Shown here one piece after another: positions 1-23,038 of a DNA stretch of 23,038 bases. Location of the stretch: contig JADJFN010000037.1 of assembly GCA_016708565.1 (NCBI GenBank), positions 128,001 through 151,038 of the forward strand. Direction: 5' to 3'. The notes beneath the pieces are model-generated. The model was not told the DNA's origin and ran no database searches. It worked only from the letters and a program-made list of their open reading frames with translations. This DNA comes from Myxococcales bacterium. GTDB lineage: Bacteria > Myxococcota_A > Polyangia > Haliangiales > Haliangiaceae. How positions within the stretch are numbered: the first letter of the stretch is position 1; each line of letters begins with the position of its first letter. The translations under genes and the position numbers were made by a program.

Positions 1-1
1 T

Positions 2-796: not shown

Positions 797-850
797 CCCC
801 GCGGCCTCCGTTGAACCTGCCGGCGGCGGCGGGCATGATCGCCGGCGACC

Positions 851-2848: not shown

Positions 2849-2914
2849 CGGTTGGCGCGGAGGCGCTTGACGGCCGGCGGGGCCCGTGGCGCGATCGCGC
2901 GCGAGGTGACGATC

Positions 2915-3379
2915 ATGGAGATGCCGAAGGTCGGTCGCGAGATGCAACGGTTGACGGAGCTGTTCGTGGGCTCGTGGCGCGGCGACGAGCGGCTGTTCCC
3001 GTCGGCGTGGGACCCGGTCGGCGGGCCCGCCGTCGGGACCTGGACGGTGCGGTCGGTCGCGGGCGGCTTCGCGCTGGCGTTGGAGTACATCGAGGAGCGC
3101 GACGGCCGGGTGACGTACCAGGGCCACGGCGTGCACGCCCAGGACGCCCACACCGGGCAGCTGGCCGCGTTCTGGTTCGACAGCATCGGCGTGGTGCCGA
3201 AGGCCGGCGTGCCGGCGACCCTCGAAGGCGATCGCTACACGTACACCGAGCGCACGCCGACCGGGCAGTCGCGGTTCACCTACGCGTGGCAGGGCGGCGT
3301 GTTCACGTTCGCGATCGATCGCTCGCCCGACGGCGTGACCTGGGCGCCGATGCACGCGGGCACGTACCGCCGGACGTGA
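2915..3379 (+). CDS. Small DUF1579-like hypothetical protein (predicted beta-rich fold).
   Basis: ATG at 2915 is preceded by GAGGTGA at a spacing of about 5 nt. High GC3. Starts 67 nt after the AAA gene stop on the same strand. The family assignment is from memory and is tentative. Confidence 0.55.
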   Translation: MEMPKVGREMQRLTELFVGSWRGDERLFPSAWDPVGGPAVGTWTVRSVAGGFALALEYIEERDGRVTYQGHGVHAQDAHTGQLAAFWFDSIGVVPKAGVPATLEGDRYTYTERTPTGQSRFTYAWQGGVFTFAIDRSPDGVTWAPMHAGTYRRT

Positions 3380-4096: not shown

Positions 4097-4152
4097 GGCG
4101 GCGATCGTCCCGGATCTACGTCGGGCGCGCAATTTCTCGCGGGCGCGAACGG

Positions 4153-6530: not shown

Positions 6531-6550
6531 CCGCGCACCCTACCATCGAC

Positions 6551-7267: not shown

Positions 7268-7268
7268 G

Positions 7269-7550
7269 TCAGCCTCCGAACCAGCCGCGCACGCCGCCGG
7301 CCGCGGGGTCGGGCGTCGCGGGGGCCGGGGCCGCCGCCGGGGCCGGGGCCGGCTTCGTCGGGGCGGCGTGCGCGGTCGACGGCGCCGCGGCCGCGGGAGC
7401 GTCGGGCGCTGCGGCGGTCGGGGCCGGCGCCGCCTGCGCGTCGGGGCTGGGCGTGGTCGGCTGCCGCTGCGCGGGGCGATCGCAGGCGGCGGCCGTCAGC
7501 GCGCCGCCGATGACCAGGACGTTGTAGAGCTTCTTGATCGTGTCGTTCAC
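7269..7550 (-). CDS. Small Pro/Ala-rich lipoprotein.
   Basis: GTG start preceded by AAGGAGACCCCC. The N-terminus 'MNDTIKKLYNVLVIGGALTAAAC' is a lipoprotein-like signal with Cys. The first codons are locally AT-richer, typical of real starts in this genome. The stop sits 1 nt from the next gene's start. Confidence 0.6.
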   Translation of the reverse strand: MNDTIKKLYNVLVIGGALTAAACDRPAQRQPTTPSPDAQAAPAPTAAAPDAPAAAAPSTAHAAPTKPAPAPAAAPAPATPDPAAGGVRGWFGG

Positions 7551-7612
7551 GGGGGTCTCCTTGGTGAGTCACCCGAGCAACGGCGGCCGGCGGCGACCGG
7601 CGCATGGAATCG

Positions 7613-9619
7613 TCACGGATCGAGCGTGAGCGTGCCGAACCCGCTGGGCGCGTGGAAGTTGGGCTTGGCGGTGCGACCCGGGAACGCCATCAGGTAGCGG
7701 CGCGGCTTGCCGCCCTCCATGCGGTCGAGGCCGAGCGGCAGCACCGCGCCGGCGGTCAGCGCCGCGATCAGCTCGGGGGCGGCGATCGTGAACTCGATCG
7801 TGGCGGTGCCGGCGGCGGCGTCGCGGGTGGTGCCGATCGTCAGCGCGCCGGACCACGCGGTGTCCTCCTTCTTGACGCCGGGGCGGCCGCTGCGATCGAC
7901 CGCGATGTCGAACCAGTGGCCGAACGGGCCCACCTCGATCTCGAAGTAGCGCCGCGGCACCGCGGGATCGGGCGCGATGAACACCTCGACGCAGTCCTCC
8001 TGGTACAGGCCCACGCGCTCGACGTCGGTGGGGCGGCTGGTGTCGACCTTGAGCCCGGTGCCCTCGACCTGCCACAGCACGTGCAGGCCGCGGCTCGACC
8101 ACAGGAAGCGCACCGTCGACGCGTGCGGCGTCTTGGCGCCCATCCAGTCGGTGGCGAAGCGGTGGGCCGGGGCGCGATCCCAGATCGGCTCGATCGCGCC
8201 GTCCATCGCCGGCACCTCGGCGTCGTCGACGCGGGCGGCGTGGACCTGGCGATCCTCGGCGGCGGCGACGTCGTCGACGACGAAGTCGCCCATCGCGTAC
8301 AGCCGCGCCGGTCGCCGCTGCGCCAGCAAGCCCGCGCCGTCGCCGGTGACCGGCGGATCGGCGAGGTCGATCCCGAACCGCGCGGCCGCGACCTCGAGCA
8401 GCGGCGAGGTGCGATGGCCGCCCAGCTCGGCGGCGAGGCCGGCGTGATCCCACAGCCCCAGGAGCTGCGCGCCGACGCGATCGACCAGCACCGGGTTGGT
8501 GCCGCCGACGGCCATCGCCTCGGCCGACGGGAACAGCACCTGGAAGCCGTCGCCGCTCATCGCCGGCGCGCCCTCGGCGAGGATCACGTGCGGGGTCTCG
8601 ACCTCGAACACGTCGACCATGCGCTCGGCGAACTTCTCGAGCGCGGCGACGTAGACCTTGCGCGCGCGGGGGTCGCCCTTCTTCACCAGGTCGATCGCGG
8701 CGCCGACCTCCTTGTGGGTGCGCCACTTCTGGCGGTAGGCCGGCGCGGCGTCGCTGTACATCGCGGCGCCCTGCAGCGACTTGATCGCGATCGAGAACAC
8801 CGCGAACCGGTGCGCCTTGAGCTTGGGCAGCGAGATGAACAGGCCGTGATCGAGGTGCGCGGCGACGATCTTCGGGATCAGCAGCGTGGGCACGTGGGTG
8901 CCCGCCATGCCCGACAGCCCCAGCGGCTTGCCCGGCTGATCGCCCTCGACGTCGAACGTGCCGTCGTCGTCGAGCGCCACCAGCGGCACGCCCTCGTCGG
9001 CGCACATCTTGGCGTAGCCCGAGACGTCGATCAGCCGGTCCCAGTCCTTGGGCTGGCCGCCGAAGCCGTCGGCGACGGTGATCGCGGTGTGGCCGCGGGC
9101 CTTGAGGCAGCGGATCACGCCGCGCACGAACTCGGGATCGGTGGTGCGGCCGGCGACGCCGTTGTCGCCGCCGTTGCTCTTGGGGTTCTTGAACCAGTCG
9201 AAGCCGCTCATGTTGGGCTTGAGCAAGACCGGCGTGGCGGGCGGCCGCTTGGGCACGACCGCCTCGCACAGCCGCTGGCCCAGCTCGCGCGCGGTGCCGC
9301 CCTGCAGGATCGTCACCGGCGAGCGATCGGCGGCCAGCCGCGCGCGGTTGGCCTCGCGCAGCGCCGCGCCGTCGACGGTGTCGCCGACGACCACCGGCGG
9401 CCCGGCCTGCCACGCCGGCGACGCGCCGGTCGTGGTGTCGACCGCTGGCACCGCGGCCACCGCGGCGTCGGCGCTGGCCGTCGGGCGCGCGTCGAGCGGC
9501 GGCGCCACCGCGAGCGCGGCGTCGGCGTTGGCCGGCGGCGCGGTGGGCTTCGGCGCGTCGCCCTTGCCGCAGGCGGCGGTGGCGATCGTCGCGAGGGCGA
9601 GGCGGGTCCACGGGCGCAT
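7613..9619 (-). CDS. Lipoprotein with an N-terminal DUF362 domain and a C-terminal carbohydrate-binding-module-family-9-like (CBM9/DOMON-like) domain.
   Basis: The real start is the internal ATG at about 9617-9619 ('MRPWTRLALATIATAACGKG', a lipoprotein signal). The ORF-track N-terminal 170 aa overlap hpf on the opposite strand and are spurious. A DUF362-type block ('LLKPNMSGFDWFKNP...TAITVADGFGG') is followed by a CBM9-like block ('VRFLWSSRGLHVLWQVEG...YFEIEVGPFGHWFDIAV'). Confidence 0.65.
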   Translation of the reverse strand: MRPWTRLALATIATAACGKGDAPKPTAPPANADAALAVAPPLDARPTASADAAVAAVPAVDTTTGASPAWQAGPPVVVGDTVDGAALREANRARLAADRSPVTILQGGTARELGQRLCEAVVPKRPPATPVLLKPNMSGFDWFKNPKSNGGDNGVAGRTTDPEFVRGVIRCLKARGHTAITVADGFGGQPKDWDRLIDVSGYAKMCADEGVPLVALDDDGTFDVEGDQPGKPLGLSGMAGTHVPTLLIPKIVAAHLDHGLFISLPKLKAHRFAVFSIAIKSLQGAAMYSDAAPAYRQKWRTHKEVGAAIDLVKKGDPRARKVYVAALEKFAERMVDVFEVETPHVILAEGAPAMSGDGFQVLFPSAEAMAVGGTNPVLVDRVGAQLLGLWDHAGLAAELGGHRTSPLLEVAAARFGIDLADPPVTGDGAGLLAQRRPARLYAMGDFVVDDVAAAEDRQVHAARVDDAEVPAMDGAIEPIWDRAPAHRFATDWMGAKTPHASTVRFLWSSRGLHVLWQVEGTGLKVDTSRPTDVERVGLYQEDCVEVFIAPDPAVPRRYFEIEVGPFGHWFDIAVDRSGRPGVKKEDTAWSGALTIGTTRDAAAGTATIEFTIAAPELIAALTAGAVLPLGLDRMEGGKPRRYLMAFPGRTAKPNFHAPSGFGTLTLDP

Positions 9620-9793
9620 GGTGCGAGCTTCGACGGCGCGCGTCCGCGAGGCAAGGCGCGCGCGCGTGCCGATCTGGCACTGGCCGCGCCGCTTTGGCGC
9701 TCCGCGGCTCGAGACGGGGGACTGCCCGATCGCCGCGCGGTATCGCGATGTTCGGCCCTTGCGGGTGGGATGGCACGGCCCCACGGTGGAGGC

Positions 9794-10150
9794 ATGCCAA
9801 TCGAGGTCACGTTCCGTGGAATGGAGCCCTCCGAGTTCGTCGCTGCCCGCGCCCGTGAGTCCGCGGAGCAGCTCCTGGCCGGCGCGCCGGAGAGCGTCGG
9901 TTGCCGCGTCGTGATCGAGACCCCGCCCGGGCACCACAGCCACGGCCAACCGTTCCACGTCCGTGTCCACCTGATGGTGCCCGGTGACGACATCATCGTC
10001 GATCGCGATCCCGGCCGCGGCCCGCAGGCGCACGACGACGTCTACGTCGCACTCGCCGACGCGTTCCAGGTCGCGCGGCGCCGCGCCGATGAGCTCGGCC
10101 GCAAGCGCCGAGAGGCGCGCCGCCGCCACGACGTCGCTGCGTCGGAGTAG
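9794..10150 (+). CDS. hpf: Ribosome hibernation-promoting factor, short form (HPF/RaiA/YfiA, ribosomal S30AE family).
   Basis: 'MPIEVTFRGMEPSEFVAARARESAEQL...VRVHLMVPG...HDDVYVALADAFQVARRRADELGRKR' matches the S30AE beta-alpha-beta-beta-beta-alpha pattern, including the C-terminal 'DMYAAID..KLERQL' helix. GGAGG sits just upstream of the ATG. An alternative start at 9770 is possible. Confidence 0.72.
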   Translation: MPIEVTFRGMEPSEFVAARARESAEQLLAGAPESVGCRVVIETPPGHHSHGQPFHVRVHLMVPGDDIIVDRDPGRGPQAHDDVYVALADAFQVARRRADELGRKRREARRRHDVAASE

Positions 10151-10168
10151 CGTGGGCGCCCCGCGCTA
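10148..10168. terminator. Near-perfect 21-nt palindrome (tagcgtgggcgccccgcgcta) spanning both the hpf stop and the convergent minus-gene stop. Candidate bidirectional terminator hairpin.
   Basis: 9-bp stem (one G-T wobble) with a 3-nt loop, read directly. No U-tract, as is common in high-GC genomes. Confidence 0.4.
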
Positions 10169-10942
10169 GCGGCGATCCGCGGTGAAGCCGGTCGTGAACT
10201 TGATGCTGGCGCTGGCCACCAGCGCCTCGAGCTGGCCGTCCATGTTCGGGTCGCCGGCCCACAGGCAGCCGCCGGCGTAGCCGATCGTCACCAGGCCGGC
10301 GTCCATCGCGACCGCGCTCCAGTCGCCGGCGTCGGCCGTGCCCTCGGTGCGCAGCGACGCGTCGGCCACCGACCAGCCGAGCACGGCGCAGTTGAAGCCG
10401 TTGGTCGCGATGCCGGCGCCGAGGTACAGCCGGAACGTCTCGCCGGTCTCGCCGATCACGCCGAAGGTCTCGCGGTTCTCGGTGACGACGTCGCCGGTGC
10501 ACACGTCCTGGCAGTCCGGGTTGTTGGTGCCGGCGCCGCAGGTGCCGGCGGCCGGCCGCTCGAGCGCGCCGGTGCAGCGCTGGGTCGGCAGCGTCACGTA
10601 CATGCGATGCTCGAAGCCCGCGTCGCGCTGCTCGGCCAGCACCGACGCCGGCCACGCCTCGCTCGGGCACAGCACCTCGGGGCGGCCGCAGTCGAGGTTG
10701 AAGCGGAACGGCCGGCCCTCGTGCGTGATGTCGATGACCCCGCCCTGCGCGCCGAGCTCACGCGTGTACACCGCCGCGCCGATCTTCACCTCCACCCCGA
10801 TCGTGTCGTCGTACGTCACGTCCCACCAGCCGTTCACGTCCGGCGCCGGCGACTTCGAGTTCGCCGCGCACCCGTCGCCCTTCGCGCCGCCGAGCAGAGG
10901 GAGAGCCAGGACCAGGATCGCCGAGAGCTGGATGTTGCGCAT
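10166..10942 (-). CDS. Secreted Cys-rich hypothetical protein.
   Basis: Likely start at 'MRNIQLSAILVLALPLLGGAKG', a Sec signal. It has 12 or more Cys in the mature part and high GC3. A GGGGTGGGGC SD-like element lies upstream. Confidence 0.62.
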   Translation of the reverse strand: MRNIQLSAILVLALPLLGGAKGDGCAANSKSPAPDVNGWWDVTYDDTIGVEVKIGAAVYTRELGAQGGVIDITHEGRPFRFNLDCGRPEVLCPSEAWPASVLAEQRDAGFEHRMYVTLPTQRCTGALERPAAGTCGAGTNNPDCQDVCTGDVVTENRETFGVIGETGETFRLYLGAGIATNGFNCAVLGWSVADASLRTEGTADAGDWSAVAMDAGLVTIGYAGGCLWAGDPNMDGQLEALVASASIKFTTGFTADRR

Positions 10943-11033
10943 GCCCCACCCCATCGCAACCCGCGTTCCACCCCCGATCGCCAACGCCCGTTCACGCTTC
11001 ACATGGGGACAGGATCTACCCATCTACGCTGTT

Positions 11034-11045
11034 GATATTGTGGGA
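11034..11045 (+). promoter_or_regulatory. Direct repeat copy 1, GATATTGTGGGA. Candidate operator or promoter element upstream of the 10942 minus-strand gene.
   Basis: Exact 12-mer repeated 79 bp away (11113-11124). Lies in an AT-rich (~50% GC) intergenic island. Confidence 0.4.
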
Positions 11046-11112
11046 CTTCTTAGCCCTCTTGCGTCGCAAAAGGGGACACCTTCTACGGGGGCAAGGATTT
11101 GAAATCGCTTAG

Positions 11113-11124
11113 GATATTGTGGGA
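11113..11124 (+). promoter_or_regulatory. Direct repeat copy 2, GATATTGTGGGA.
   Basis: Identical 12-mer. The flanks also share CGCT...ACT. Confidence 0.4.
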
Positions 11125-11257
11125 ACTCGACTTGAGGCGAAACCCGACAGCGTCTCAAATGTCGTCAGCGAGGCGATTCCACAAGCGATTCTAACGGCTT
11201 ACGACCCAGGAATGTGTCCCTTTCTGCGACACACGAGCCCGGAAAACCGTTTAGATA

Positions 11258-11626
11258 TCAGTGATCTGGATGGGGGGATCCTGTCCCCAGCCAGCGGTCG
11301 AGGCAGTGCTCGGCGGCCTCGAGGAGCGCCTGGGCGGCGGCCTGCTCGGCGGGGGTGGGCGTGGCGGCGCGGACGACGTCGGGGTGGTCGAGGCCCCACT
11401 GGACGGCGAGGGCGGCGGCCTCGTCGGCGCACGCGGCGTCGGTGCAGGCGCAGGCCTGGTCGCGCTGGGCGGCGAGGGCGGCGAGGAGGGCGGCGGTGGC
11501 GGGATCGGGCGGCGGCGCGTCGACGGCGGCGTCGATGGGCGGCGGCGGCGGGACCGGGCGATCGGCGGGAGGTGGGGCGCCGCAGGCGGCCAGGCAGAGC
11601 AGGGCCAGCGCGGCGCGGGCGATCAC
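11258..11626 (-). CDS. Small Cys-rich lipoprotein, translationally coupled to frr.
   Basis: GTG start overlapping the frr TGA (GTGA). 'VIARAALALLCLAACGAPP' is a lipobox LAAC. Six Cys in 'QACACTDAACADE...EHCLDRW'. GGAG lies 10 nt upstream. Confidence 0.6.
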   Translation of the reverse strand: MIARAALALLCLAACGAPPPADRPVPPPPPIDAAVDAPPPDPATAALLAALAAQRDQACACTDAACADEAAALAVQWGLDHPDVVRAATPTPAEQAAAQALLEAAEHCLDRWLGTGSPHPDH

Positions 11627-12180
11627 AGCTCGGTGATCTCCTTCTCCTTGCCCTTCTCGAGCTCGTCGATCGAGGCGACGTAGCGATCGGTGAGGTCCTG
11701 GACCTTCTTCTCGCCGTTCTTCTTCTCGTCCTCGGTGATCGCCTTGTCCTTCTCGGCGTCCTTGAGCATGTCCATCGCGTCGCGGCGCGCCGCGCGCACG
11801 GCCACCTTGGCGTCCTCGGAGGTCTTCTTGATGCCCTTGACCAGGTCGCGGCGGCGCTCGGCGGTGAGCGGCGGGATCGGCACGCGCACCAGGTCGTTGT
11901 CGGCCACCGGGTTGAGGCCCAGGTCGGCGGCGCGGATCGCCTTGTCGATCGCCGGGACCATCGACTTCTCCCACGGCTTCACCGACAGCATGCGGGCGTC
12001 GACCACGGTCACCGTCGACACCTGGTTCACCGGCGTCGGCGTGCCGTAGTAGTCGACGCGCACGCCGTCGAGCATCGCCGGCGACGCGCGCCCGGTGCGC
12101 ACCTTGGCCAGCTCGCGCTTGAAGGCCTCGACGGCCTTCTTCATCCCGTCTTCCGCTTCGGTCGTGATGTCGTTCAGCAT
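11623..12180 (-). CDS. frr: Ribosome recycling factor.
   Basis: 185 aa, a clear RRF (e.g. 'DGVRVDYYGTPTPVNQVSTVTV...RVPIPPLTAERRRDLVK'). An AAGAGGAA SD lies upstream. Confidence 0.95.
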   Translation of the reverse strand: MLNDITTEAEDGMKKAVEAFKRELAKVRTGRASPAMLDGVRVDYYGTPTPVNQVSTVTVVDARMLSVKPWEKSMVPAIDKAIRAADLGLNPVADNDLVRVPIPPLTAERRRDLVKGIKKTSEDAKVAVRAARRDAMDMLKDAEKDKAITEDEKKNGEKKVQDLTDRYVASIDELEKGKEKEITEL

Positions 12181-12195
12181 GGTTCCTCTTGGACT

Positions 12196-12945
12196 CTACG
12201 CGAAACGCGAGCCTTCGTTGTCCTTGACGATGCGGGTGCCCACGTCCTCGCCGCACACCACCCGCTGGATGTTCCCGGCCTTGGTCATGTCGAACACGTT
12301 CATCGGCAGCTCGTTGTCGCGGCACAGCGCGAACGCGGTGGCGTCCATGACGCCGAGGTCCTGCTTGAGCGCGTCGGTGAACGTCACCTGCGCGTAGCGC
12401 CGCGCGTCGGCGTGCTTGCGCGGGTCCTTGTCGTAGACGCCGTCGACCTTGGTCGCCTTGAGCAAGATCTCGGCGCCGATCTCCATCGCCCGCAGCGCCG
12501 CGGCGGTGTCGGTGGTGAAGAACGGGTTGCCGGTGCCGGCGCCGAAGATCACGACGCGGCCCTTCTCGAGGTGGCGCATCGCGCGCCGCCGGATGTACGG
12601 CTCGGCCAGCTGCGACATCGGGATCGCCGACTGCACCCGCGTGGTCACGCCGGCGCGCTCGATCGCGTCCTGCAGCGACACCGCGTTCATCACCGTCGCC
12701 AGCATGCCGACGTAGTCGGCCGACGCCCGGTCCATGCCCTTGCTCGACTCGGTGAGCCCGCGGAAGATGTTGCCGCCGCCGACCACGACCGCCAGCTCGA
12801 CGCCGAGCTTCGCGGTCTCGGCGACCTCGGACGCGATGGTGCGGATGGTCTCGGGCGAGATCCCGTAGCCCTGGTTGCCCATCAGCGCCTCGCCCGACAG
12901 CTTGAGGAGCACCCGTTTGTACGCTGGTCGCGGCGCGGCGGTCAT
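12196..12945 (-). CDS. pyrH: UMP kinase.
   Basis: '[13 protein letters not shown]...[11 protein letters not shown]...[19 protein letters not shown]' is canonical PyrH. The true start is the internal ATG at 12943-12945, which aligns with the E. coli PyrH N-terminus. The ORF-track upstream extension is spurious. Confidence 0.95.
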
Positions 12946-13018
12946 GTGCGCGGGAACGTACAGGCGCGCCGGGCGTTTGGCCAGGGCTCGCCGGGCACCC
13001 GGTGGTACGCTGGCTTGG

Positions 13019-13405
13019 ATGCAGGAACCCCGCGACACGATCGTCGATCCCCAGATCCGGCGTGAGGTCGAGCCGCCGCGCCCCGACGCGCGGCGCCCCG
13101 TGCTGTTGATCGCGATCGTCGTGACCGCGGCCCTCGCGGGCGCGGCGGCCATGGCCCTGATCCGCGGTCCCCGGGCCGCGCCGCCGCCGCCGCCGCGCGC
13201 GGTGGCCCCGCCGGCCGCGGTCGCCCCCGTCGCCCCGGTCGCGCCGGTGCCGCCGGCGCCGGCTCCTGTGGTCGCGCCGGTCGCGCCGGTCGCGCCGACC
13301 GCGCTGCCCACCTCCCACGCGGGGGGGCCCTGCGTCGACTACCACCAGAAGGGCCTCAGCGAGGATCAGCCGCGCCGCGTCGACTGCCTCGACGGCCCGC
13401 GCTAG
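13019..13405 (+). CDS. Single-pass membrane-anchored protein with an (APV)n Pro/Ala/Val-rich linker and a small C-terminal Cys-pair module.
   Basis: ATG at 13019. Very high GC3. TM segment '[22 protein letters not shown]'. The C-terminus is '[19 protein letters not shown]'. Divergent from pyrH. Confidence 0.55.
13271..13297. repeat. 3 x 9-bp tandem repeat (gtcgcgccg) encoding VAP repeats, flanked by degenerate copies.
   Basis: Read directly in the sequence. Confidence 0.7.
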
Positions 13406-13436
13406 CCGCGCGAGCATCCCGGGCGACGCGCTCCGG

Positions 13437-14708
13437 TCAGCGCGCGACCCGCGCGGTCAGCGCCACCAGCACCTGGCCGCCGACCGCGGCTCGCGGGGCG
13501 CGATCGCCGTCGAGCCGCGCGTACGGCGACAGCCCGAACTCGCCGTAGACGTCGGCGCGCACGACGTCGGACAGCGGGTGGCCGAACGACGCGGACACGC
13601 CCACCGCGCGGTCGGCGTAGGTGCCGGCGTCGCGGGTCCAGGTGCGGGTGCGGGTGGCGAACGGCGCCAGCGCGAAGCTGCCGGCACCGAGCGTGCCGTC
13701 GAAGCGCGCGCTCACGCGGTCCTCGGCGGCGACGTTGCCGTCGAACGTCGGGAAGACGCTGCGCGCGACCGCGGCGCTGGCCCACAACTCCCCGGTGCGC
13801 ACGCCGACCGCCAGCCCGCCGACCGGGATCGTCAGCTCGGGCAGGCCTTCGCCGTCGATGGTCTCGGTCCACTCGTCGACCACCTCGCCGTCGACCGTGG
13901 TCTGGCTCGACGCGGTCATCTGGCCGCCGGTGAAGCCCCAGCCGCCGTGCGCCGCGGCGTACCAGCCGTCGCGATCGATCCGCGCGCGCAGCGGCAGCAG
14001 CGTGAACGCGGTGCCGCCGCGGTCGTCGTCGCCGACCTTGAGCCCGGCGCCCTCGATGACCAGCGCCTCGACCTTGGCGTCGGTGGCGCGGCCGGCGTAG
14101 TGGTACCAGTAGGTCGACATGTCGATCTCGAGCTGCGCGCTCCGGCCGTCGCCGGTGTCGTCGTGCTGCGTGACCACGCCGTGGCCGATCGTCATCATGA
14201 CGAACGCGTGGCGGTGCGGGGTGTCGCCCTTCCACAGCTCGCCGCCGCCGACCGTGACCCGCTCGGTCGAGCCGTCGTAGCGCCGCCGCCACAGCGACCG
14301 CCGACCGTCGAGCGCCGGCGCGACGCCGAGCTCGTGGACGCCGGTGATCTCGAACGTCAGCCCGACCCGCGACAGGCAGAAGCTCCACTGCGCGCTGCCG
14401 ACCGCGCGCTGCGCCGCCAGCGGCCGCAGCCGACCTTGCACCGCGCCGCTGACGATGTCGCAGCCGATGCCCGACACCGCCGCCGCGGCGCCGACGCCGA
14501 CGTCGGGGCCGCTCCCGGTGCCGGCGGTGACCTGGGCGAAGGCCGCGCCGTGCCAGTAAGGGCCAGTGGCCTCGTCCGACAGCAGGTCGCGCCGCGGCGC
14601 CAGGTCGAGCTGCGCCGCGCCGACCGCCAGATCGGCTGGCTGGGCGTTCGCCACGCCGGTCAGCAGGGCGAGGATCCCGAGCGCGACGAGGCGGTCCATG
14701 TCCGCCAC
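13437..14708 (-). CDS. Secreted hypothetical protein with a Sec signal peptide. Gly/Thr/Asp-rich and beta-rich, possibly outer-membrane or surface.
   Basis: 'MADMDRLVALGILALLTGVANAQP' is a signal peptide. 423 aa, high GC3. The start is ATG 14708 or 14699. Confidence 0.62.
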   Translation of the reverse strand: MADMDRLVALGILALLTGVANAQPADLAVGAAQLDLAPRRDLLSDEATGPYWHGAAFAQVTAGTGSGPDVGVGAAAAVSGIGCDIVSGAVQGRLRPLAAQRAVGSAQWSFCLSRVGLTFEITGVHELGVAPALDGRRSLWRRRYDGSTERVTVGGGELWKGDTPHRHAFVMMTIGHGVVTQHDDTGDGRSAQLEIDMSTYWYHYAGRATDAKVEALVIEGAGLKVGDDDRGGTAFTLLPLRARIDRDGWYAAAHGGWGFTGGQMTASSQTTVDGEVVDEWTETIDGEGLPELTIPVGGLAVGVRTGELWASAAVARSVFPTFDGNVAAEDRVSARFDGTLGAGSFALAPFATRTRTWTRDAGTYADRAVGVSASFGHPLSDVVRADVYGEFGLSPYARLDGDRAPRAAVGGQVLVALTARVAR

Positions 14709-14885
14709 TGGTGCAACGGTCGGTCCAGTGCGCAGGATGTCGAGATGGTTGAGGTTGGTGGCGGGATCCGTCCAGGATCGAACGGTGGTCGACCAGCCGA
14801 TCCGTCAGGTTGAGGACGGGTGCCGCGTCTGGGACGCCGTGCGGGGCCTGGGCTTGGTGGCCTCGGCCTTGCTGTACCAGCGGGC

Positions 14886-16240
14886 ATGAAGCGCCTCCTG
14901 GTGATCGCTGGGTTCGTGGTCGCGGCCGGCACCTCCACGGCCACCGCACAGCCGTGCGATCCCGGGGGCGAGCTGGTCGAGGTGACCGAGTACAGCGGCC
15001 GACAGCACTACCACCTCGCGCTGGCCGCCGGCGCGGGCGAGGCGCTGGTGGGCTGGGCGCCCGAGGGGCCCAACGGTGACGTGCCGCGCGAGTTCACGAT
15101 GAGCCGGGTGGCCGCGGACGGATCGACGTCGTCGATCCGCGTGCCGTTCCTCGGCCACGCTGCGATCGTCGGGACCCCGCCGATGACCAGCAGCGGCACC
15201 ACCGCGATGCACACGTGGGGCGTGGGGGCGTCGGCGTGATGCTGCGCGAGCCCGACGGCGCGGAGCGCGCCCCGATCCACCTCGACGACTACCGCAGCTA
15301 CGGCGACAGCGTCGTCCGCGCGCGCTTCGACGGCACGCACTTCGTCGTGACCTGGGTCGCCGGCCCGCCCGAGGCCAGCGTCCTCAAGGCGGTGCGCTTC
15401 GACCCCGACGGCGTCCAGCTCGACGCCACGCCGCTCGTGCTCGGCCCGGCGTTCGCGTACAAGCCGTGGGCCGCGTCGACGCGCATCGGCGACGTCACCT
15501 GGGTGATGTGGTCGACGTTCACGTCGTCGGACGCCGAGTTCGTCAGCGGCACGAACCCCGATCTGGTCGGCGTCCGCATCGCCGACGACGGCCGGCTCCT
15601 CGACGCGACGCCGGTAGTGCTGGTCCCGGGCGCGCGCGGCGTCGCGCTGGCCGCCAACGGCGACACCGCGCTGCTGCTGGTGATGGCCCCGGACGGCGGC
15701 TTCGACATGTCGACGATCGATCGCGACGGTGTCGTCACGCCGGGCGGCCACCTGGCGCTCGCCGACGATGAGTTCTTGCTCGAGCTGCTGGCGGCCCCGG
15801 GCGGCGACGGCTTCACGGCGTGGACCACGCACCCCGTTAACACCGGCACGCCGATCCACGCCGAGGACGAGGTCGCGGCCCGCACGATCAGCCGGACCGG
15901 CGTGGCCGCCGCGGCGCCGAGCCTGACGCTGGCCGGCCAGGCGTGGGCGATCTCCACCGACGGCCGCGACTACCTGCTGCTCGCCGTCGAGGAGACCGTC
16001 GCCGGGGCCACCGGCGAGGAGCGCCTGACCCTCCGGCGGTTCCGCGGCGGGACGTTCACGCCGGTCACCGTCGGGACGACGCTCGTCGCCGCGCCGCTCA
16101 CGCTCACCACCACGCAGTTCTGCAGCGGGCCCTACGAGCCGAACGACGGCTGCCAGGCGGGCGGCCCCGCGGGCGCGGGGACGATGGGGCTGATCGGGCT
16201 GGGCCTGCTCGCGCTCTGCCGCCGCCCGCGGCGCCGCTAG
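14886..16240 (+). CDS. Secreted repeat (beta-propeller-like) protein with an N-terminal signal peptide and a C-terminal MYXO-CTERM sorting tail. It is interrupted by an apparent +/-1 frameshift at about 15190-15236 (G4/G5 runs).
   Basis: Signal 'MKRLLVIAGFVVAAGTSTATAQP' in frame 0, stop at 15239. The frame-2 ORF from 15215 continues the same repeat pattern and ends in 'CQAGGPAGAGTMGLIGLGLLALCRRPRRR' (MYXO-CTERM-like). Both segments have high GC3. The second segment has no signal peptide of its own. Confidence 0.6.
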
Positions 16241-16256
16241 CCGCCCCGAAACGACG

Positions 16257-16282
16257 ACGGGCCCGCCTCGCGGCGAGCCCGT
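16257..16282. terminator. GC-rich hairpin (11-bp stem with 1 mismatch, 4-nt loop) between the convergent MYXO-CTERM gene and tsf. Candidate bidirectional terminator.
   Basis: acgggcccgcc-tcgc-ggcgagcccgt, read directly. It lies 17 nt after the plus-gene stop and 24 nt after the tsf stop. Confidence 0.45.
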
Positions 16283-16305
16283 GCGTCACGCGACGTGGAC
16301 CTGGA

Positions 16306-16962
16306 TCAGGCCATGCCGGCGGCCTTCGCCACCTCGGTCGCGAAGTCGTCCTTCTTCTTCTCGAGGCCCTCGCCCAGCTCGAAGCGGGCGAAGCGGCGGA
16401 CCTTGATGTTCTCGCCGATCTTCGCGATCAGCTCCTGCTGGAGCTGCTCGATGGTCTTGTCGGGGTTCTTCACGAACGGCTGGTCGAGCAGGCAGATGTC
16501 CTTGAGCCACTTGCTGAGCTGGCCCTCGACCATCTTCTGCGCGATCGCCTCGGGCTTGCCGCTCTCGACGGCCTTGGCCACCAGCACGGCGCGCTCGCGG
16601 GCGATGACGTCCTCGGCGACCTCCTCGCGGCGGACGAACTGCGGGCCCATCGCGGCGATCTGCATCGCGACGTCCTTCGTGAAGCCGACGAAGTCCTCGT
16701 TGCGGGCGACGAAGTCGGTCTCGCAGTTGATCTCGACGAGGACGCCGATGCGGCCGCCGCCGTGGATGTACGAGACGACGGCGCCCTCGGTGGCCTCGCG
16801 GCCGGCCTTCTTGGCGGCCTTGGCCAGGCCCTTGGCGCGGAGGAAGTCGATCGACTTCTCCATGTCGCCGTCGCACTCGACCAGCGCCTTCTTGCAGTCG
16901 GCCATGCCGGCGCCGGTGCGCTCGCGCAGATCCTTGATCATCGTGGCGGTCACTTCAGCCAT
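16306..16962 (-). CDS. tsf: Elongation factor Ts (short form).
   Basis: 'MAEVTATMIKDLRERTGAGMADCKKAL' closely matches the EF-Ts N-terminus. Confidence 0.95.
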   Translation of the reverse strand: MAEVTATMIKDLRERTGAGMADCKKALVECDGDMEKSIDFLRAKGLAKAAKKAGREATEGAVVSYIHGGGRIGVLVEINCETDFVARNEDFVGFTKDVAMQIAAMGPQFVRREEVAEDVIARERAVLVAKAVESGKPEAIAQKMVEGQLSKWLKDICLLDQPFVKNPDKTIEQLQQELIAKIGENIKVRRFARFELGEGLEKKKDDFATEVAKAAGMA

Positions 16963-17042
16963 GGGAGTCTCCTGATGCTCGATGCGAGAAAGCCGCGGAC
17001 CTGGCCGCGGCGCGTTCAGTCAGTGGGAACGGGGCGCGGGAT

Positions 17043-17921
<879 letters not shown>

Positions 17922-18011
17922 GGTCGTAGCTCGCTTTCTTCCGTTGGGCCTCCGGCGCGTCGTCGGACCCCTGACACCCGCTAGGCGGGCACGGACGAGG
18001 TCCTCGGCAAC

Positions 18012-18027
18012 CGTGGGAGTTGTGGGA
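18012..18027 (+). promoter_or_regulatory. Tandem GTGGGAG-TTGTGGGAG motif about 98 nt upstream of the rpsB start. It shares the TTGTGGGA core with the 11034 and 11113 repeats.
   Basis: Read directly. Same orientation relative to the downstream minus-strand gene and at a similar distance as the repeats upstream of the 10942 gene. Confidence 0.3.
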
Positions 18028-18158
18028 GCGCGCGATCTAGCACGCCCGAGCGGCGCGAGGCAAGGTCCTGGATCGACGGTGTTTCCTCAGTGATCGCGTA
18101 GTGTTGGCGCAGCGCAGGTGGCACCGGCGCTGGCGGTGGTGCGGCCCCTTGGTCGGCC

Positions 18159-18650
18159 CTAGCGGATCGCGGCGATGACGGCGGGCAGGGCGGCGTAGTC
18201 GGAGGCGCGGGGCTCGTCGAGGCGCAGCCGGACCCGGCCGGCGGCGTCGACGATCAGCACGGTGGGCAGCTGGTGGACGCCGAGCGGCGGGCCCTCGACG
18301 GTCTGGGTGCGATCGCGGCCGATCGGGAAGCGGGCGGGGACCTCGGCGAGGAACGCGTCGACTGCGGCGTCGTCCTCGTCGACCGACAGCCCGAGCACCG
18401 CGACGGTGGGATCGGCGGCCAGGTCGTTGAGGTGCGGGAACGAGTGCTTGCAGGGCAGGCAGTAGCTGGCCCACACGTCGATCACGACGACCTTGCCGGC
18501 CAGCTCGGCGCTGGCCCAGGTGCCGCCGCCGCGCAGCGGGTAGCTCAGCGCGGGGAGCGGCGCCGCCTGCTCGGCGGGCACCGCGGTCGGCGGCGGCGGC
18601 GCGCTGGCGCACGCGGCGGCGAGGAGGGACGACAGCAGCAGCGAGCGCAT
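18159..18650 (-). CDS. TlpA/ResA-like thiol:disulfide oxidoreductase (thioredoxin fold, CxxC), lipoprotein.
   Basis: Lipoprotein signal 'MRSLLLSSLLAAACASAPP'. Active site 'WASYCLPCKHSFP'. 163 aa. Confidence 0.85.
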   Translation of the reverse strand: MRSLLLSSLLAAACASAPPPPTAVPAEQAAPLPALSYPLRGGGTWASAELAGKVVVIDVWASYCLPCKHSFPHLNDLAADPTVAVLGLSVDEDDAAVDAFLAEVPARFPIGRDRTQTVEGPPLGVHQLPTVLIVDAAGRVRLRLDEPRASDYAALPAVIAAIR

Positions 18651-18706
18651 CGCCGCACCATAGCCCGCGCGGTTGCGCGCGCCACGCGATCGGCCAAGCT
18701 GCCGCG

Positions 18707-19424
18707 ATGCGCATCCGGGTCGCGGTCGCCGCCGCGCTGATCATGCTCCCCGCCACCCCGCGGCTGGCCGAGGCTTGAGGCATCGGTGCGCCCGTCGGTC
18801 CGACGGGCTGTGAGGGGGAACGCGCCGCCGACGACCACGTACTTCGTGAGCGTCGCGGCCGCGGCGGCGTCGACCCGGCTGGTGTTCGACGGCGATCGCG
18901 ACGTCGAGCTCGACCAGCAGGCGATCACCGTGAGCGTCGGCCAGGTGCGGCCGTCGCGGTGGAGCGTGCGCGCGTCGCTGGGCGCGGTGCTCGACGGCGC
19001 GCTGGCCGGCGAGGGCCGGCGCTACCAGCTCGACCCTGGCGTGGTCGGCGCGATCGCGATCGCGCGGCCGTGGACCTGGGGGCCGTGGTTCGTGCACGGC
19101 ACGGCGTCGCTGGGCGCGTCGCGGGTCACGACCACCGAGCGGGTGGCCGGCGCGCCGACCGAGGGCCTGGTGGCGATCGACGCGCGGATCGGCGCGACCG
19201 CCGGCCGCCAGCTGGGCCCGGTCATGCCCTACGCGCTGGCCCGCGCGTTCGGCGGGCCGGTGCTGTGGACGATCGACGGCGCCGGCGTGACCGGCACCGA
19301 CGCCTACCACGTGCAGCTCGGCGCCGGCGCGACGCTGTCGATCGGCGACGCCTGGTCGGTGATGATCGACGTCGCCGCGCTGGGCGAGCGCGCCGCGTCG
19401 GTCGGCGTGAGCTGGCGGCGGTAG
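18707..19424 (+). CDS. Secreted beta-rich hypothetical protein. The signal-peptide exon ('MRIRVAVAAALIMLPATPRLAEA', frame 2) is separated from the mature-domain frame (from 18786, frame 0) by an apparent 1-nt frameshift near C4 runs at about 18745-18790.
   Basis: Both frames show high GC3, and the GC3 signal switches frame around 18760-18786. The frame-2 reading is a canonical signal peptide ending AEA followed by TGA. Confidence 0.5.
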
Positions 19425-19442
19425 CGCGGCCGCGGCGCGACG

Positions 19443-19782
19443 CTAGCGTGGGGGCGTGGGCGTGAACGCGGCGCGGATGTAGGCCAGCACCTGGCGCTGC
19501 TGCTCGGCGCTGAGGATCGCCCGCCACGCGGGCATCGCGCCGATGCGCCCGACCGTGCCGTCCGCGATGCTGCGCAGGAGCGCGTCGTCGGGGCGCGCCA
19601 GCGCGCGCGTCGCCGACGAAGTCGGCGGCCAGCTTCCCATCGAGGCCGCGGCCGTCGGCCTGGTGGCAGGCCTGGCAGTGCGTCGCGTAGATCGCGCGCC
19701 CCGGCAGGTCGCTGGCGGGGGCGGCGGTCGTGGGCAGGCCGACGCCGCGGGCCAACAGCGCGGCGCAGGCGACGGCGATCAC
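19443..19782 (-). CDS. Small class-I c-type cytochrome (CQACH haem motif), with an apparent 1-nt frameshift in a (GC)n tract at about 19598-19615.
   Basis: The N-terminal part ('...AIYATHCQACHQADGRGLDGKLAADFVGD') is in one frame and the C-terminal part ('RALARPDDALLRSIADGTVGRIGAMPAWRAILSAEQQRQVLAYIRAAF') in another. Together they form a typical cytochrome c fold signature. The GTG start overlaps the upstream gene stop (GTGA). Confidence 0.68.
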
Positions 19783-20179
19783 CAGGCAGGGAGCTGCAGC
19801 ACCGCGCAGCGCGACATCCGGGCAAACTGGCCCGGGCGCGGCTCGATCGGCCGCTTGCGCGCGTGGCGGAAGTGCCACGGCAGCACCACGTACTGCGGGT
19901 AGACCTCGAGCCCGACCATCGCGGCGATCGCACCCAGCTTCACCCAGAACACCGGGTTGGCGCTGTAGAAGGCCAGCGGCTTTCGAGCTGCCCGAACAGC
20001 CGCCACAGCCCGCCGCCGAACAGCAGCAGCGCGGCGATGCCGTTGCCGTTGTCGGCGAAGCGGGTGGCGGCGACGTCCTGCCGTCGCAGCGCGACCAGCC
20101 GCAGCGCGCCGAACGCGGCGGCGAGCGCGAAGCCGCCCACATGGACGATCGAGGCGATGGCCGCGGTGAGGCCGGGCAT
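19779..20179 (-). CDS. DUF2214-like small polytopic membrane protein, with an apparent 1-nt frameshift at an A/T run at about 19978-19990.
   Basis: N-terminal frame 'MPGLTAAIASIVHVGGFALAAAFGALRLVALRR...LLLFGGGLWRLFGQLE'. C-terminal frame 'KPLAFYSANPVFWVKLGAIAAMVGLEVYPQYVVLPWHFRHARKRPIEP'. Restoring one A gives a continuous ~130-aa protein. The family assignment is from memory. Confidence 0.5.
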
Positions 20180-20210
20180 CGCGGCGATGGTAGCGAGCGA
20201 TCGCCGCGCG

Positions 20211-21679
20211 CTACCAGGCGTCGCCGACGGTCGCGGTCGGCAGGGCGTCGTGGATGGCGCGGGCGAGGGCGGCGCGGCGGCCAGCGGGGACGCGCAGCCA
20301 GACCGCGACGACGCGGCGGCGATCGCGGTGGACGATCGCGCTGGGCCCGCTGTGCGCGGTGACGGTCACGAGGTCGCGCAGCGGGACCGCGCCGACGCGC
20401 GGCGAGGTGACGGTCAGGTCGAGGTGCGGCTCCTCGCCGGGCGGCCAGGCGATCCGGACCTCGAGCTCGTCGGGCCCGTCGACGACGTGGCTGAGCGGTG
20501 CGTCGCCCAGCGAGACCCGCAGCGCGTCGGCGACCGCGACCACCGGGACGCCGAGGTCGGCGGCGCGGGCGCGATCGATCGTGATCTCGCGGCTGACGGC
20601 CCGGCGCGGATCGACGAGCGGCGGGTAGCTGGCGGCGGTGAGCGGGCGACGGCGCGCTCGCCGGTGGTCAGCGCGACGTCGAGGTCGGCGGCCGGCAGCA
20701 GCGCCTCGAGCGCGACCACGCCGCGCCCGGCCCAGCGGACCGCGCCGAGGCCGCGGCGCGCGACGATCCCGTCGATCGCGGCCAGCGCGCGCTCGTCGAC
20801 GCCGGCCGCGACCAGCACCTCGAGCGCGGGCGGCTCGCGGCGCACGCGCACGGCGGCGCGCCGGCTCGCAGCAGCTCGCCGGCGATCGCGTCGACGTCGG
20901 CGTCGGCGTCGGGCAGCGCGACCAGCCCGACCACGGTCTGCGGCGGCAGCACCTCGGCCCCGCCGTCGCGCAGCGCCGCGGCCACCGCCCGTGCCGTCGC
21001 TGGCGACCGGACCTCGATCGCGACGATCAGCCCGGGCCCGGCCGGCGTGTGACCGACGCACGACGCCACGGCGGCGCGCTCGAGGACCGCGACGTCGCGC
21101 AGCCGCACGCCGTCGCGCAGCGGCAGGCCTTCGAGGTCGGCGAGCCCGGCGCCGGTGGTGCGGATCGTCGTGGCGACGCCGGTGGCGTCGATGCGCCCGG
21201 CCGGCAGCGCGGTGTTGGCGCGCAGCGCCGCCAGCAGGTCCGTGGCGGTCAGCCCATACGCGGCCAGCCGCGCCGGATCGAGCCGCACCTGCAGCTGGTC
21301 GTCGACGAGGCCGCACACGTCGACCGCGGTCACGCCTTCCAGCACCTCGGTGCGCCGCTGCAGCTCGCGGCCGCGGTCGGTGGCGCGGCGCGGATCGTCG
21401 GTCGCCGGCAGCGGCACGATGGCGAGCACCGTCGGCGTGCGCCACGCGCGGGTGATCATCGGCGGCCGGGCGTCCGGCCGGCAGTCGGGGCAGGGCGGGT
21501 GATCGCGTCGCGGGCCGCCGCGGCGAGCCGCTCGACGGCGGCCGGCGACCGCGCGGCCAGCTCGATGACGGCGACGTCTCGACCGCGCGGCCGTCGACGC
21601 GCGCCACGCCCGGCAAGCCGGCGTCGCCGCAGCCGATGAACGCGGCGAGCGCGGCGAGCGCGAGGGTGCGGCGACGCAT
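20211..21679 (-). pseudogene. RND-transporter (AcrB/CzcA-type) periplasmic porter-domain-like gene with a lipoprotein signal ('MRRRTLALAALAAFIGCGD'). It is fragmented over three frames and lacks the transmembrane domains. Probable relic.
   Basis: Frame segments 'DVCGLVDDQLQVRLDPARLAAYGLTATDLLAALRANTALPAGRID...VRLRDVAVLE...IVAIEVRSP...LRDGGAEVLPPQTVVGLVALPDADA' and 'VPLRDLVTVTAHSGPSAIVHRDRRRVVAVWLRVPAG...LPTATVGDAW' resemble the repeated AcrB porter subdomains. There are several frame switches, and about 1.5 kb is too short for a full RND pump. Confidence 0.4.
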
Positions 21680-21704
21680 GCGCGATCAGGTACCACACGC
21701 GCGA

Positions 21705-22057
21705 TCACTCCGCGGTGATGCCCCCGAACACCTGGTACTGGCCGGGCTGCACCTCGACCCGATCGAGCGTCAGCGTCCACAGGCCCGAGACGTTGTCGCT
21801 GCCGAGCTCGAAGGTGTCGAACAGCGCGCCGTCGACGCGGACCTCCAGCGCGCCGTTGGCGACGTCCCGGGGCGCGGTGAGCGTGGCCGCGGGGACGCTG
21901 CCGTAGTCGGTCGCGCCGACCTCGACCCGCAGCGTGACGTCGGCCTGGTTGTCGACCTGGATCTGCTTCTCGCCGGCGCCGTCGTCATCGGTGCAGGCGC
22001 CGGCGAGCGCGAGGCTGAGGGGAGGAGCGCGGCGAGGCGGAGCGGGGAGGCGGGCAT
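21705..22057 (-). CDS. Small lipoprotein, with an apparent 1-nt frameshift in a C4/G4 run at about 22015-22025 inside the signal peptide.
   Basis: ATG at 22055-22057 gives 'MPASPLRLAALL'. After the shift it reads 'PLSLALAGACTDDDGAGEKQIQVDNQADVTLRVEVGATDYG...' through to the stop at 21705. Lipobox LAGAC. Confidence 0.5.
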
Positions 22058-22180
22058 GGCCGCGACCACAGCAACCCGCGGGCCAGCGGTCGCGACCGCG
22101 ACCGGCGCCCGCCTGGCCCGCCGTCATGACCGCGCGTTCACGGCGCGTGCGTCGCCGGATGGTCGCGGTAGCCTCGACGT

Positions 22181-22579
22181 GTGATCGTCACCCCGGTGCG
22201 CTGCGAGACCCAGCCGCCGCCGCGCGTGGCCCCGCCGGTCGCGCGCGCGCCGGACGACGAGGACGCCGACGCGCCGGCCGGCGACCTGGTGTGCGCGACG
22301 TGCGGGCGGCGGGTCACCCACGACGACCACCGCGTCGCGGTCAACGGCGCGCACGAGCACACGTTCGTCAACCCCGGCGGCTTCGTCCACGTCGTCGGCT
22401 GCTTCGCGCTGGCCACCGGCCTGGCCTACGTCGGTGATCCGCAGTCGGCGTTCTCGTGGTTCCCCGGCTTCCGCTGGCAGATCGCCGCGTGCGGCGGCTG
22501 CGTGCACCTCGGCTGGATCTTCCGCGCCGCCGGCGATCAGTTTCACGGCCTGTTGCCGGCGCAGCTACGGCGCGGCTGA
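22181..22579 (+). CDS. Bacterial cereblon-like CULT-domain protein (thalidomide-binding-domain homolog, Yippee/MsrB-like beta-tent zinc fold).
   Basis: 'LVCATCGRRV...HEHTFVNPGGFVHVVGCFALATGLAYVGDPQSAFSWFPGFRWQIAACGGCVHLGWIF' aligns motif-for-motif with the human CRBN thalidomide-binding domain ('[26 protein letters not shown]'). Both CxxC pairs and the three cage Trp are present. GTG start. Confidence 0.8.
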   Translation: MIVTPVRCETQPPPRVAPPVARAPDDEDADAPAGDLVCATCGRRVTHDDHRVAVNGAHEHTFVNPGGFVHVVGCFALATGLAYVGDPQSAFSWFPGFRWQIAACGGCVHLGWIFRAAGDQFHGLLPAQLRRG

Positions 22580-22600
22580 CGCAGCTACGGCGCGGCTGAC
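22561..22600. repeat. Perfect 20-bp tandem duplication (gcagctacggcgcggctgac x2). The first copy contains the stop codon of the CULT gene.
   Basis: Read directly. Confidence 0.85.
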
Positions 22601-23038
22601 GCGCGCAGCACGCCGACCCGGCTGCCGCGCGGCACGCCGTCGGTGAGCATCGCCGCGGCCGCGTCGGCGTAGGGCACCGTCATCGCGCCGAGCTGCGCCA
22701 GGAAGCGCGGCAACAGCAACGCCGCCGGCAGCGGCGGCCCCGCCATCGGCAGGCGATCGATCGCCAGCCGCGCGCGCTGGCCCGAGCGCGGGCCCTCGAG
22801 CATCGGCCCCGGGGCACAAGAGCCGCCAGTCGATCGTCGACGCTCGCAGCCGGCGCAGGTTGGCGCCGTGCGGCCAGAACAGCGCGCGCACGCCGGGCAG
22901 GTCCATGCCGGTGCGGTCGCTGTCACCGAGCTCCGAGCAGGCCGGCGCCGGCGGTGAACCACGCCGCCGGGCGCGCGTCCGGCGGCAGCGCCTCGAGCGC
23001 GGTCACGAGCCGATCGACCAGCGCGACGAAGCGATCGC
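22585..23038 (-). pseudogene. NAD(P)H-binding (NmrA/atypical-SDR-like) protein, C-terminal part. The gene continues beyond the window and is spread over three frames.
   Basis: Frame pieces 'DRFVALVDRLVTALEALPPDARPAAWFTAGAGLLGA', 'DLPGVRALFWPHGANLRRLRASTIDWRLLCPG' and 'AIDRLPMAGPP...LAQLGAMTVPYADAAAAMLTDGVPRGSRVGVL' each have high GC3 and resemble the C-terminal half of NAD(P)H-binding domain proteins. At least two frame switches. Confidence 0.35.

Follow-up and report, generated by a model that had tools for sequence, protein, structure and literature searches.

The window analysed here, a stretch of 23,038 nucleotides (nt) from a Myxococcales bacterium (assembly GCA_016708565.1, contig JADJFN010000037.1, positions 128,001 to 151,038), carries in its right-hand part a row of accessory genes whose reading frames are broken by small insertions and deletions (indels), together with a gene interrupted by an in-frame UGA codon. 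Lists of open reading frames (ORFs) are uninformative in this window, because its GC content is ~75%. The reading frame was tracked with a plot of GC content at third codon positions (GC3) and a simple frame hidden Markov model (HMM). The coding signal switches frame at ~15225, 19602, 19789, 19982, 20643 and 20867 and further to the right, with six frame changes on the minus strand between 19452 and 21501. An earlier reading of the sequence alone (the original prediction) held that the coding signal continues in the new frame at many of these points, and the GC3 plot, the frame HMM and translations of the individual segments bear this out.

Genes of the affected region

The leftmost affected gene (14886..16240, plus strand) encodes a secreted protein of 451 amino acids (aa), with an N-terminal signal peptide and a Cys/Gly-rich, hydrophobic C-terminal tail containing RRPRRR; the protein has no Pfam or NCBIfam match. 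Around ~15225, the segment translations give the signal peptide in one frame and the Cys/Gly-rich C-terminus separately. The UGA-containing gene lies at 18707..19424 on the plus strand and is called as a 192-aa protein.

On the minus strand follows a DUF2214-cytochrome c gene (19443..20179; 246 aa when intact), broken at 19601/2, 19787/8 and 19982. Its intact counterpart on contig L092 (1480-2220) encodes a protein matching Pfam DUF2214 (2.9e-25) and Cytochrome_CBB3 (1.1e-10), in which a DUF2214 membrane domain (weakly CopD-like) is fused to a C-terminal mono-haem cytochrome c (CQACH ... MPAW). In the window, the CxxCH haem motif and the downstream MPAW motif fall in different frames, and the DUF2214-like helices are spread over three.

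The RND-like lipoprotein gene (20211..21679, minus strand; 527 aa when intact, L092 2251-3834) carries five small indels and a 111-nt deletion, and its AcrB-like sequence is likewise spread over three frames. The intact protein matches Pfam ACR_tran (1.3e-33) over profile positions of about 41-300 plus a second stretch. It has a lipoprotein-type signal (…AAFIGCG) and homology to the AcrB/RND porter domain, with no strongly hydrophobic 19-residue segment; by its sequence, it resembles an RND periplasmic domain from which the transmembrane pump is missing.

Further to the right lie a gene for a 117-aa lipoprotein of no family (21705..22057, minus strand), which is broken within its signal peptide, and a gene for a 133-aa CxxC...CGGC protein, also of no family (22181..22579, plus strand). 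Two pairs of Cys (CATCG ... CGGCG-VHLGW) occur in the latter protein, for which neither Pfam nor NCBIfam has a match; the window lacks the Gly that follows the second of these pairs, owing to a private 3-nt deletion that leaves the frame unchanged. The last gene (22585..23038, minus strand) is the 3′ part of a NAD(P)-binding gene that runs off the window end and carries four indels. In L092 and L094 the gene is complete (234 aa), and its product matches NAD_binding_10 (6.9e-13).

Comparison with assemblies of the same population

Contigs carrying the same locus were found by exact-sequence look-up with the Tsf, 192-aa and DUF72 proteins of the window. At least 17 different assemblies of one Myxococcota population carry it (NCBI, ENA, JGI and Logan), with contigs that are 99.2-99.9% identical to the window. 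The window stems from an uncultured Myxococcota population, for which many assemblies exist from other samples. Contig L111, 97% identical to the window, served as the outgroup; it was the single match of a JGI metagenome search with a pattern accepting both alleles at 19787/8. A contig search with Tsf yielded more distant relatives; among the matches listed, these have ≤81% Tsf identity and are all Myxococcales metagenome-assembled genomes (MAGs). They gave no synteny test, because tblastn with the intact proteins of the noisy block found no counterparts in the loci fetched from them.

The reference ORFs are single and of the same length in every assembly: 451, 192 (as called), 246, 527, 117, 133 and 234 aa. 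The original prediction had proposed comparing orthologues and restoring single bases; carried out, this comparison returns intact full-length ORFs in all covering assemblies, and its answer points to an assembly artefact. The conserved genes that it had listed as intact, rpsB, tsf and pyrH among them, are indeed of reference length and free of indels.

Private indels in the window

Indels were placed by base-by-base alignment of the window to intact assemblies of the same species. Positions 1-18700 hold a single private indel, in the gene for the 451-aa secreted protein (1355 nt in the window, 1356 nt in L001), where the run at 15224-15228 is G5 in the window and G6 in 9/9 distinct assemblies. 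Positions 18814-23038 hold 16-17 small private indels, the 111-nt deletion and seven private substitutions. The first of these is a G inserted into the G run at 18814-18818, which is absent from 11 assemblies and L111 and which, in the window only, shifts the frame of the UGA-containing gene. In the DUF2214-cytochrome c gene, 2 nt are missing at 19601/2 (at the edge of a GCGCGCG tract), 1 nt at 19787/8 and a C at 19982, where TTCT has become TTT; all three losses are absent from 9-10 assemblies and L111. A further inserted G, at 20193, is non-coding. It lies in the 30-nt spacer between the RND-like (20211) and DUF2214-cytochrome c (20179) genes and is absent from 10 assemblies and L111.

The RND-like gene measures 1584 nt in the references but 1469 nt in the window, where it carries private changes: a loss of 1 nt at 20644 (intact in L111) and at 20857/8, a gain of 1 nt at 21474/5, losses of 2 nt at 21497-9 and 1 nt at 21576/7, and the 111-nt deletion at 21624. 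In the 117-aa lipoprotein gene, a run at 22018-22022 is G4 in the window and G5 in four distinct assemblies. The gene for the 133-aa protein, 3 nt shorter in the window (399 nt) than in the references (402 nt), lacks a GCG at 22499-22502 that four assemblies carry. The NAD(P)-binding gene has lost 2 nt at 22771/2 and 1 nt at 22792-5 and gained 1 nt each at 22811-4 and 22933/4, all private against three assemblies; here also lie private substitutions at 22778, 22844, 22845 and 22917, of which 22844-5 form an adjacent TC/CT swap.

By direction, the small indels comprise 12 deletions and five insertions. The affected genes show net length changes of -4, -115, -1 and -1, and none of them regains its frame; pairs of frame-restoring indels are ruled out, as the net change per gene is not a multiple of 3. 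Real indels were thus found at or near most of the break coordinates of the original prediction, the exception being 18745-18790, where there is none. Its list had passed over the losses at 19787/8 and 22499-22502, the insertion at 20193 and the 111-nt deletion at 21624.

At each indel site, the opposite allele is found in all covering assemblies and is identical among them (9 assemblies at 15224, 10-11 at 18814-20193, 7-8 at 20644-20858 and 3-5 further right). L111 has the intact allele at all six sites that it covers (18814, 19601, 19787, 19982, 20193 and 20644). The window alleles are therefore derived and private, as the covering assemblies and the 97% outgroup all carry the intact ones. 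The window indels were seen in none of the at least 17 assemblies, nor in the single JGI metagenome match. An exact look-up of the products of three broken ORFs gave no record, which is weak evidence, since the start codon chosen by gene callers could differ. In a 2-kb alignment over the block, L111 differs from the window by 42 substitutions, and its other indels lie only in the intergenic 19424-19434.

The mutation spectrum of the block differs from that of natural variation in the same genes. The window and L092 differ by 17 substitutions and 17 gap openings, whereas the references differ among themselves by 56 substitutions and two indel events, both at the 3′ junction of one gene (17:17 against 2:56; Fisher p=1.7e-7). 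The private events alone comprise 18 indels and seven substitutions (~2.5:1; binomial p 3e-8 against an assumed indel share of 20%, a figure from mutation-accumulation studies and not from the present organism). Divergence between strains is 2-3 substitutions per kb in the block and to its left alike, and the rise in the block is restricted to indels and, less so, to private substitutions. The scorable left part (6.3-18.7 kb, 12.4 kb) has two private substitutions and one private indel. Scaled to the 4.3 kb of the block, this clock predicts ~1-2 substitutions and <1 indel under neutrality, where 7 and 17-18 are observed. Neutral decay cannot yield 17-18 indels, because the left-part clock of private changes is too slow.

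Position and sequence context

The private indel events are distributed very unevenly, with one in 1-18700 and 17-18 in 18701-23038 (binomial p about 1e-12). Window positions 1-15167 are 99.85-99.88% identical to L101/L102, with no frameshifting indel, and at least 10 hypothetical or accessory genes in the clean left 15 kb have no private indel. Within the block, non-coding sites are affected as well, namely the spacer at 20193 and the junction at 22583-22609 downstream of a gene; ~2.4 kb of non-coding DNA left of the block holds no private indel. The last 268 nt, with eight private differences (30 per kb), are the densest part of the block. No such indels are present in the short-read contigs L106 and L009, whose stated coverage is 1.5-2x.

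Sequence context contributes little. Only 5/17 small indels lie inside runs of ≥3 bases and 12/17 outside, while the 610 such runs in the clean part hold one private indel. Position rather than sequence context matters on these counts, and homopolymer context is ruled out as the main cause. The original prediction had placed all breaks at homopolymers or simple repeats; no repeat at all is present at 19601, 19982, 20193, 20644, 21497-9 and 22771, and of the classic homopolymer error signature that it saw, what stands is that some indels lie in homopolymers, but most do not. GC content is likewise ruled out as a cause, as 500-2000 and 6000-7500 are equally GC-rich (0.77-0.80) yet clean. So is a mutator or mismatch-repair-deficient strain, as private substitutions in the left part are near zero. 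The original prediction had also described the damage as confined to accessory genes and had, on this ground, leaned mildly towards real pseudogenisation. The pattern follows position: left of 14800, many accessory genes have escaped, and the damage falls within the last 4.3 kb irrespective of gene type. The accessory skew no longer favours decay, because it vanishes once position is considered.

Just left of the noisy stretch lies a strain-variable site (18097-18150), which comprises 53 nt in the window, L001, L005 and L094 and ~794 nt in L004, L006, L096, L098 and L111. The ~794-nt insert (L004 2832-3626) lies between rpsB and the TlpA-like gene and contains a 253-aa ORF without a Pfam match. 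The contigs of several assemblies end at 18097-18150, and the noisy stretch of the window starts just right of it.

Probable consensus error and its alternatives

The indels of the window are private, derived, bound to one region and far too frequent relative to substitutions. Judged by this comparison of assemblies, the cluster of frame breaks very likely reflects consensus error towards a contig end on an indel-prone platform, and not biology. Error is favoured because the indels are private, the ratio of indels to substitutions is unnatural, the damage tracks position and non-coding sites are affected; the draft-assembly indel error that the original prediction offered as an alternative gains support from privacy, ratio and non-coding changes alike. 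From ~18.8 kb rightward, the consensus would carry ~4 small indels per kb, mostly deletions of 1-2 nt, besides a few substitution errors and the one 111-nt deletion, with an isolated miscount in the G6 run at 15224-15228. Six to seven genes, all of them intact in the real population, would thereby be disrupted. The likely cause would be a platform of the long-read type on which read support fell, or polishing failed, near the contig end. The density peak in the last 268 nt would fit a consensus running out of read support, and the drop in quality may begin at the strain-variable junction 18097-18150, possibly marking a change in coverage.

Several points weigh against consensus error. The left window end is clean so that, if the window is the whole contig, only one end is degraded. 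The 111-nt deletion is a multiple of 3 in net length and is bordered by GGCG/GCGTC microhomology, and the 3-nt deletion drops one GCG from a GCGGCG repeat; changes of both types also arise naturally. In contig L100, a different deletion, of 266 nt, affects the DUF2214 region, and these genes may therefore truly vary in structure within the population. Loss of the affected genes would be tolerable, because they are accessory at the species level, with no counterparts in the related MAG loci fetched. Finally, we infer the error itself from comparison, and so too the platform and the cause of the drop in quality.

Recent pseudogenisation, in which a contiguous accessory block (the beta-barrel, DUF2214-cytochrome c, RND-like lipoprotein, 117-aa lipoprotein and NAD(P)-binding genes) would be decaying by small indels in the strain of the window, is improbable. 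The breaks are present in the sequence, no affected gene regains its frame, and the genes are of the accessory kind that related Myxococcales MAG loci lack; the deletion bias (12 versus 5) and a larger deletion with microhomology at its edges are also those of natural decay. However, the indels are private against up to 11 assemblies and the outgroup, and independent samples carry none of them. The seven substitutions and 17-18 indels exceed the neutral clock of the flanking DNA, and natural variants of these genes, at 2:56, come nowhere near the indel-to-substitution ratio of ~2.5:1 in the window. Decay would also have to account for a damaged spacer at 20193 next to undamaged spacers on the left, and for an error density that climbs to 30 per kb at the end; a mutator would raise the private substitutions in the left part, where no rise is seen. 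Programmed recoding, by ribosomal frameshifting or transcriptional slippage at the breaks such that full-length proteins are still made, is effectively refuted: short G or C runs do occur among the sites, but in all other assemblies of the population these genes can be read without a frameshift, the sites share no common motif, several genes would need 3-6 successive shifts, and no Rfam match reaches the gathering threshold in the whole window.

A mixture is unlikely, though less so than decay throughout; here most changes would be errors, but at least one of three (G5/G6 at 15224, the loss of 3 nt at 22499-22502 and that of 111 nt at 21624) would be a true polymorphism. The 15224 site lies 3.6 kb from the noisy block, in a homopolymer where slippage is natural, and G5/G6 at 15224-15228 would then be an on/off switch of the secreted protein. 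The 3-nt deletion is in frame and corresponds to one unit of its repeat, and the 111-nt loss, also divisible by 3, is flanked by microhomology; the population does contain in-frame length polymorphisms, such as the 6 nt at 7345. Against the switch stands the G6 in all nine other assemblies, with none of the population length variation that marks a phase-variable locus, in a run that is short for a contingency locus. An undercalled G6 run is a systematic platform error of a typical kind (PMC9262707). The 3-nt and 111-nt deletions are private against four assemblies and lie inside the noisy block, with further errors right beside them.

Consensus error of this kind has precedents. Indels that fragment genes are a known property of long-read assemblies (PMC12007338, Kastor; PMC9262707, Nanopore R10.4). 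As in the window, the indels of long-read or under-polished assemblies are small and mostly deletions, some of them in homopolymers, and create false pseudogenes that vanish against a close reference. Unlike evenly spread long-read errors, those of the window are confined to its 4.3-kb end and one G6 run and lie mostly outside homopolymers. Decaying pseudogenes share with the window multiple frameshifts in non-essential genes, a deletion bias and one larger deletion. In real decay, substitutions occur at or above the rate of indels, and the changes are usually common to related isolates; those of the window are indel-dominated, private and tied to a coordinate boundary that includes intergenic DNA.

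Taken at face value, the window would leave an uncultured Myxococcota genome annotated with six or seven false pseudogenes, and the cluster would suggest accessory-gene decay where none exists. An apparent bias towards accessory genes can be a positional effect of local assembly quality; such cases are settled, even without reads, once further assemblies of the population are compared.

A candidate selenoprotein gene

The UGA-containing gene is biologically weightier than the frameshift cluster. It is a candidate selenoprotein gene, in which a signal peptide (18707-18775), the UGA (18776-18778), a hairpin (18790-18808) and a predicted mature barrel (to 19424) follow one another. The original prediction had seen a frame break here, at C4 runs in 18745-18790. 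There is no indel at these runs; the interruption is an in-frame TGA at 18776-18778 that is present in every assembly, joined in the window by the private extra G at 18814-18818, just after the hairpin. Every same-species assembly has the ORF MRIRVAVAAALIMLPATPRLAEA in frame with GIGAPVGPTGCEGN... and the remainder of the 192-aa protein, with only the TGA between them. This UGA alone looks like true recoding, as redefinition of a stop codon and not as frameshifting.

A protein search gave 59 relatives of the 192-aa protein, none with a Pfam annotation; the few named ones come from Myxococcales or Kofleriaceae MAGs. Most of the 59 have no signal peptide, and eight are called as starting with M-x-(A/P)PVGP(T/A)G. 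DNA was compared for five of these eight (proteins 31-40% identical): a signal peptide, TGA and the motif follow one another in 4/5, and the contig of the fifth starts at the TGA. Three further relatives (P0034, P0037 and P0048) have a contiguous signal peptide and a Cys at the TGA column (A-x-A-C-G-V-S-x6-S-C), and the C-x10-C spacing of these Cys forms equals the U-x10-C spacing of the window gene. The codon is always TGA, never TAA or TAG, in the window species, L111, L112, L113, L114, L116 and L117, and these contigs repeat the arrangement of the window gene, hairpin included. In the Cys form L118, the codon is TGT and the hairpin is missing.

The hairpin consists of an 8-bp stem, GCCCGUCG-GUC-CGACGGGC, and spans +15 to +33, 11 nt after the UGA; its apical loop GUC puts G at +23 and U at +24. 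Over seven sequences, 96% of the cells are paired, versus 23-55% with the partner slid. Pair changes comprise CG>GC and CG>GU at one pair and UA>UG at another, with 30/500 shuffles reaching the observed score (only seven sequences). The folding-energy z-score is -0.5, which is not significant in the GC-rich context. The hairpin, which resembles a selenocysteine insertion sequence (SECIS), would also fix the peptide motif (A/P)PVGPTG. Rfam gave no SECIS match around the UGA at E<=10, and no genes of the selenocysteine machinery (selA, selB, selC and selD) lie within ~30 kb around the locus.

The protein has no match in Pfam or NCBIfam. An AlphaFold model of a Cys-form member (predicted local distance difference test score, pLDDT, 90) is a beta-barrel, with OmpT/Pla, FapF and autotransporter translocators as its best PDB matches (template modelling score, TM, about 0.5). 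The product is thus a candidate small outer-membrane beta-barrel, as predicted from the model. The conserved UGA at 18776-18778 probably encodes selenocysteine, and we consider it likely, if with less assurance than the consensus error, that the gene belongs to a true, uncurated selenoprotein family. Selenocysteine would be the first mature residue, within a U-x10-C motif, and would be read from the UGA with an fdhF-like SECIS hairpin. The family would span at least 59 mostly Myxococcota proteins, held N-terminally truncated in databases. If true, this selenoprotein family is systematically truncated by gene callers and absent from curated libraries.

The SECIS of Escherichia coli fdhF is described with a set spacing of its hairpin and a G and a U in the apical loop (PMC8659212). 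Like fdhF-type elements (PMC8659212), the window gene combines an in-frame UGA, an 11-nt spacer, a hairpin of 17-19 nt and G/U at +23/+24 in the apical loop; unlike that of E. coli fdhF, its hairpin has no bulged U17. As with bacterial selenoprotein genes in general, some homologues have Cys in place of selenocysteine, and gene callers truncate at the UGA. It differs from bacterial selenoprotein genes with an fdhF-type SECIS in encoding a small predicted barrel, in which selenocysteine would come first after the AxA cleavage motif of the signal peptide. One selenoprotein of the outer-membrane barrel type appears in recent reviews, namely the large MtrB/PioB-type GSU2204 family (NF041027; PMC13188914, PMC9312934), and the idea that such a barrel would be unprecedented was dropped on this account. 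The GSU2204 family is much larger, NF041027 does not match the UGA-gene protein, and the two are unrelated by the searches run.

Further variation in the population

Assemblies other than that of the window also show private indel noise. In L007 (JGI 3300038404; ~1914-3026), 18 gap events fall in ~120 nt corresponding to window 15810-15927, and the genes for the 420-aa and 451-aa proteins are split. In L001 (a 476-kb contig), a run near 13813 (window 13209) is C5 versus C4 in all others, and the pyrH call is lengthened to 318 aa. L100 (ERZ27280347; 1542-1555, window 19815-20081) is missing ~266 nt from the DUF2214 part; the junction shows an overlap of 14 nt, and a cytochrome-only ORF of 140 aa is left. 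This deletion may be a real variant or a misassembly.

Two length differences are common to several assemblies and give a picture of real indel variation in the population: a 6-nt in-frame CCGCCG unit at window 7345, in an ORF of 93/95 aa, and a C4/C5 run in an intergenic spacer at window 10162. Left of the window start, L102 (10426-13533) encodes a 1035-aa protein with a Pfam eCIS_core match, which adjoins a 294-aa gene matching the start of the window.

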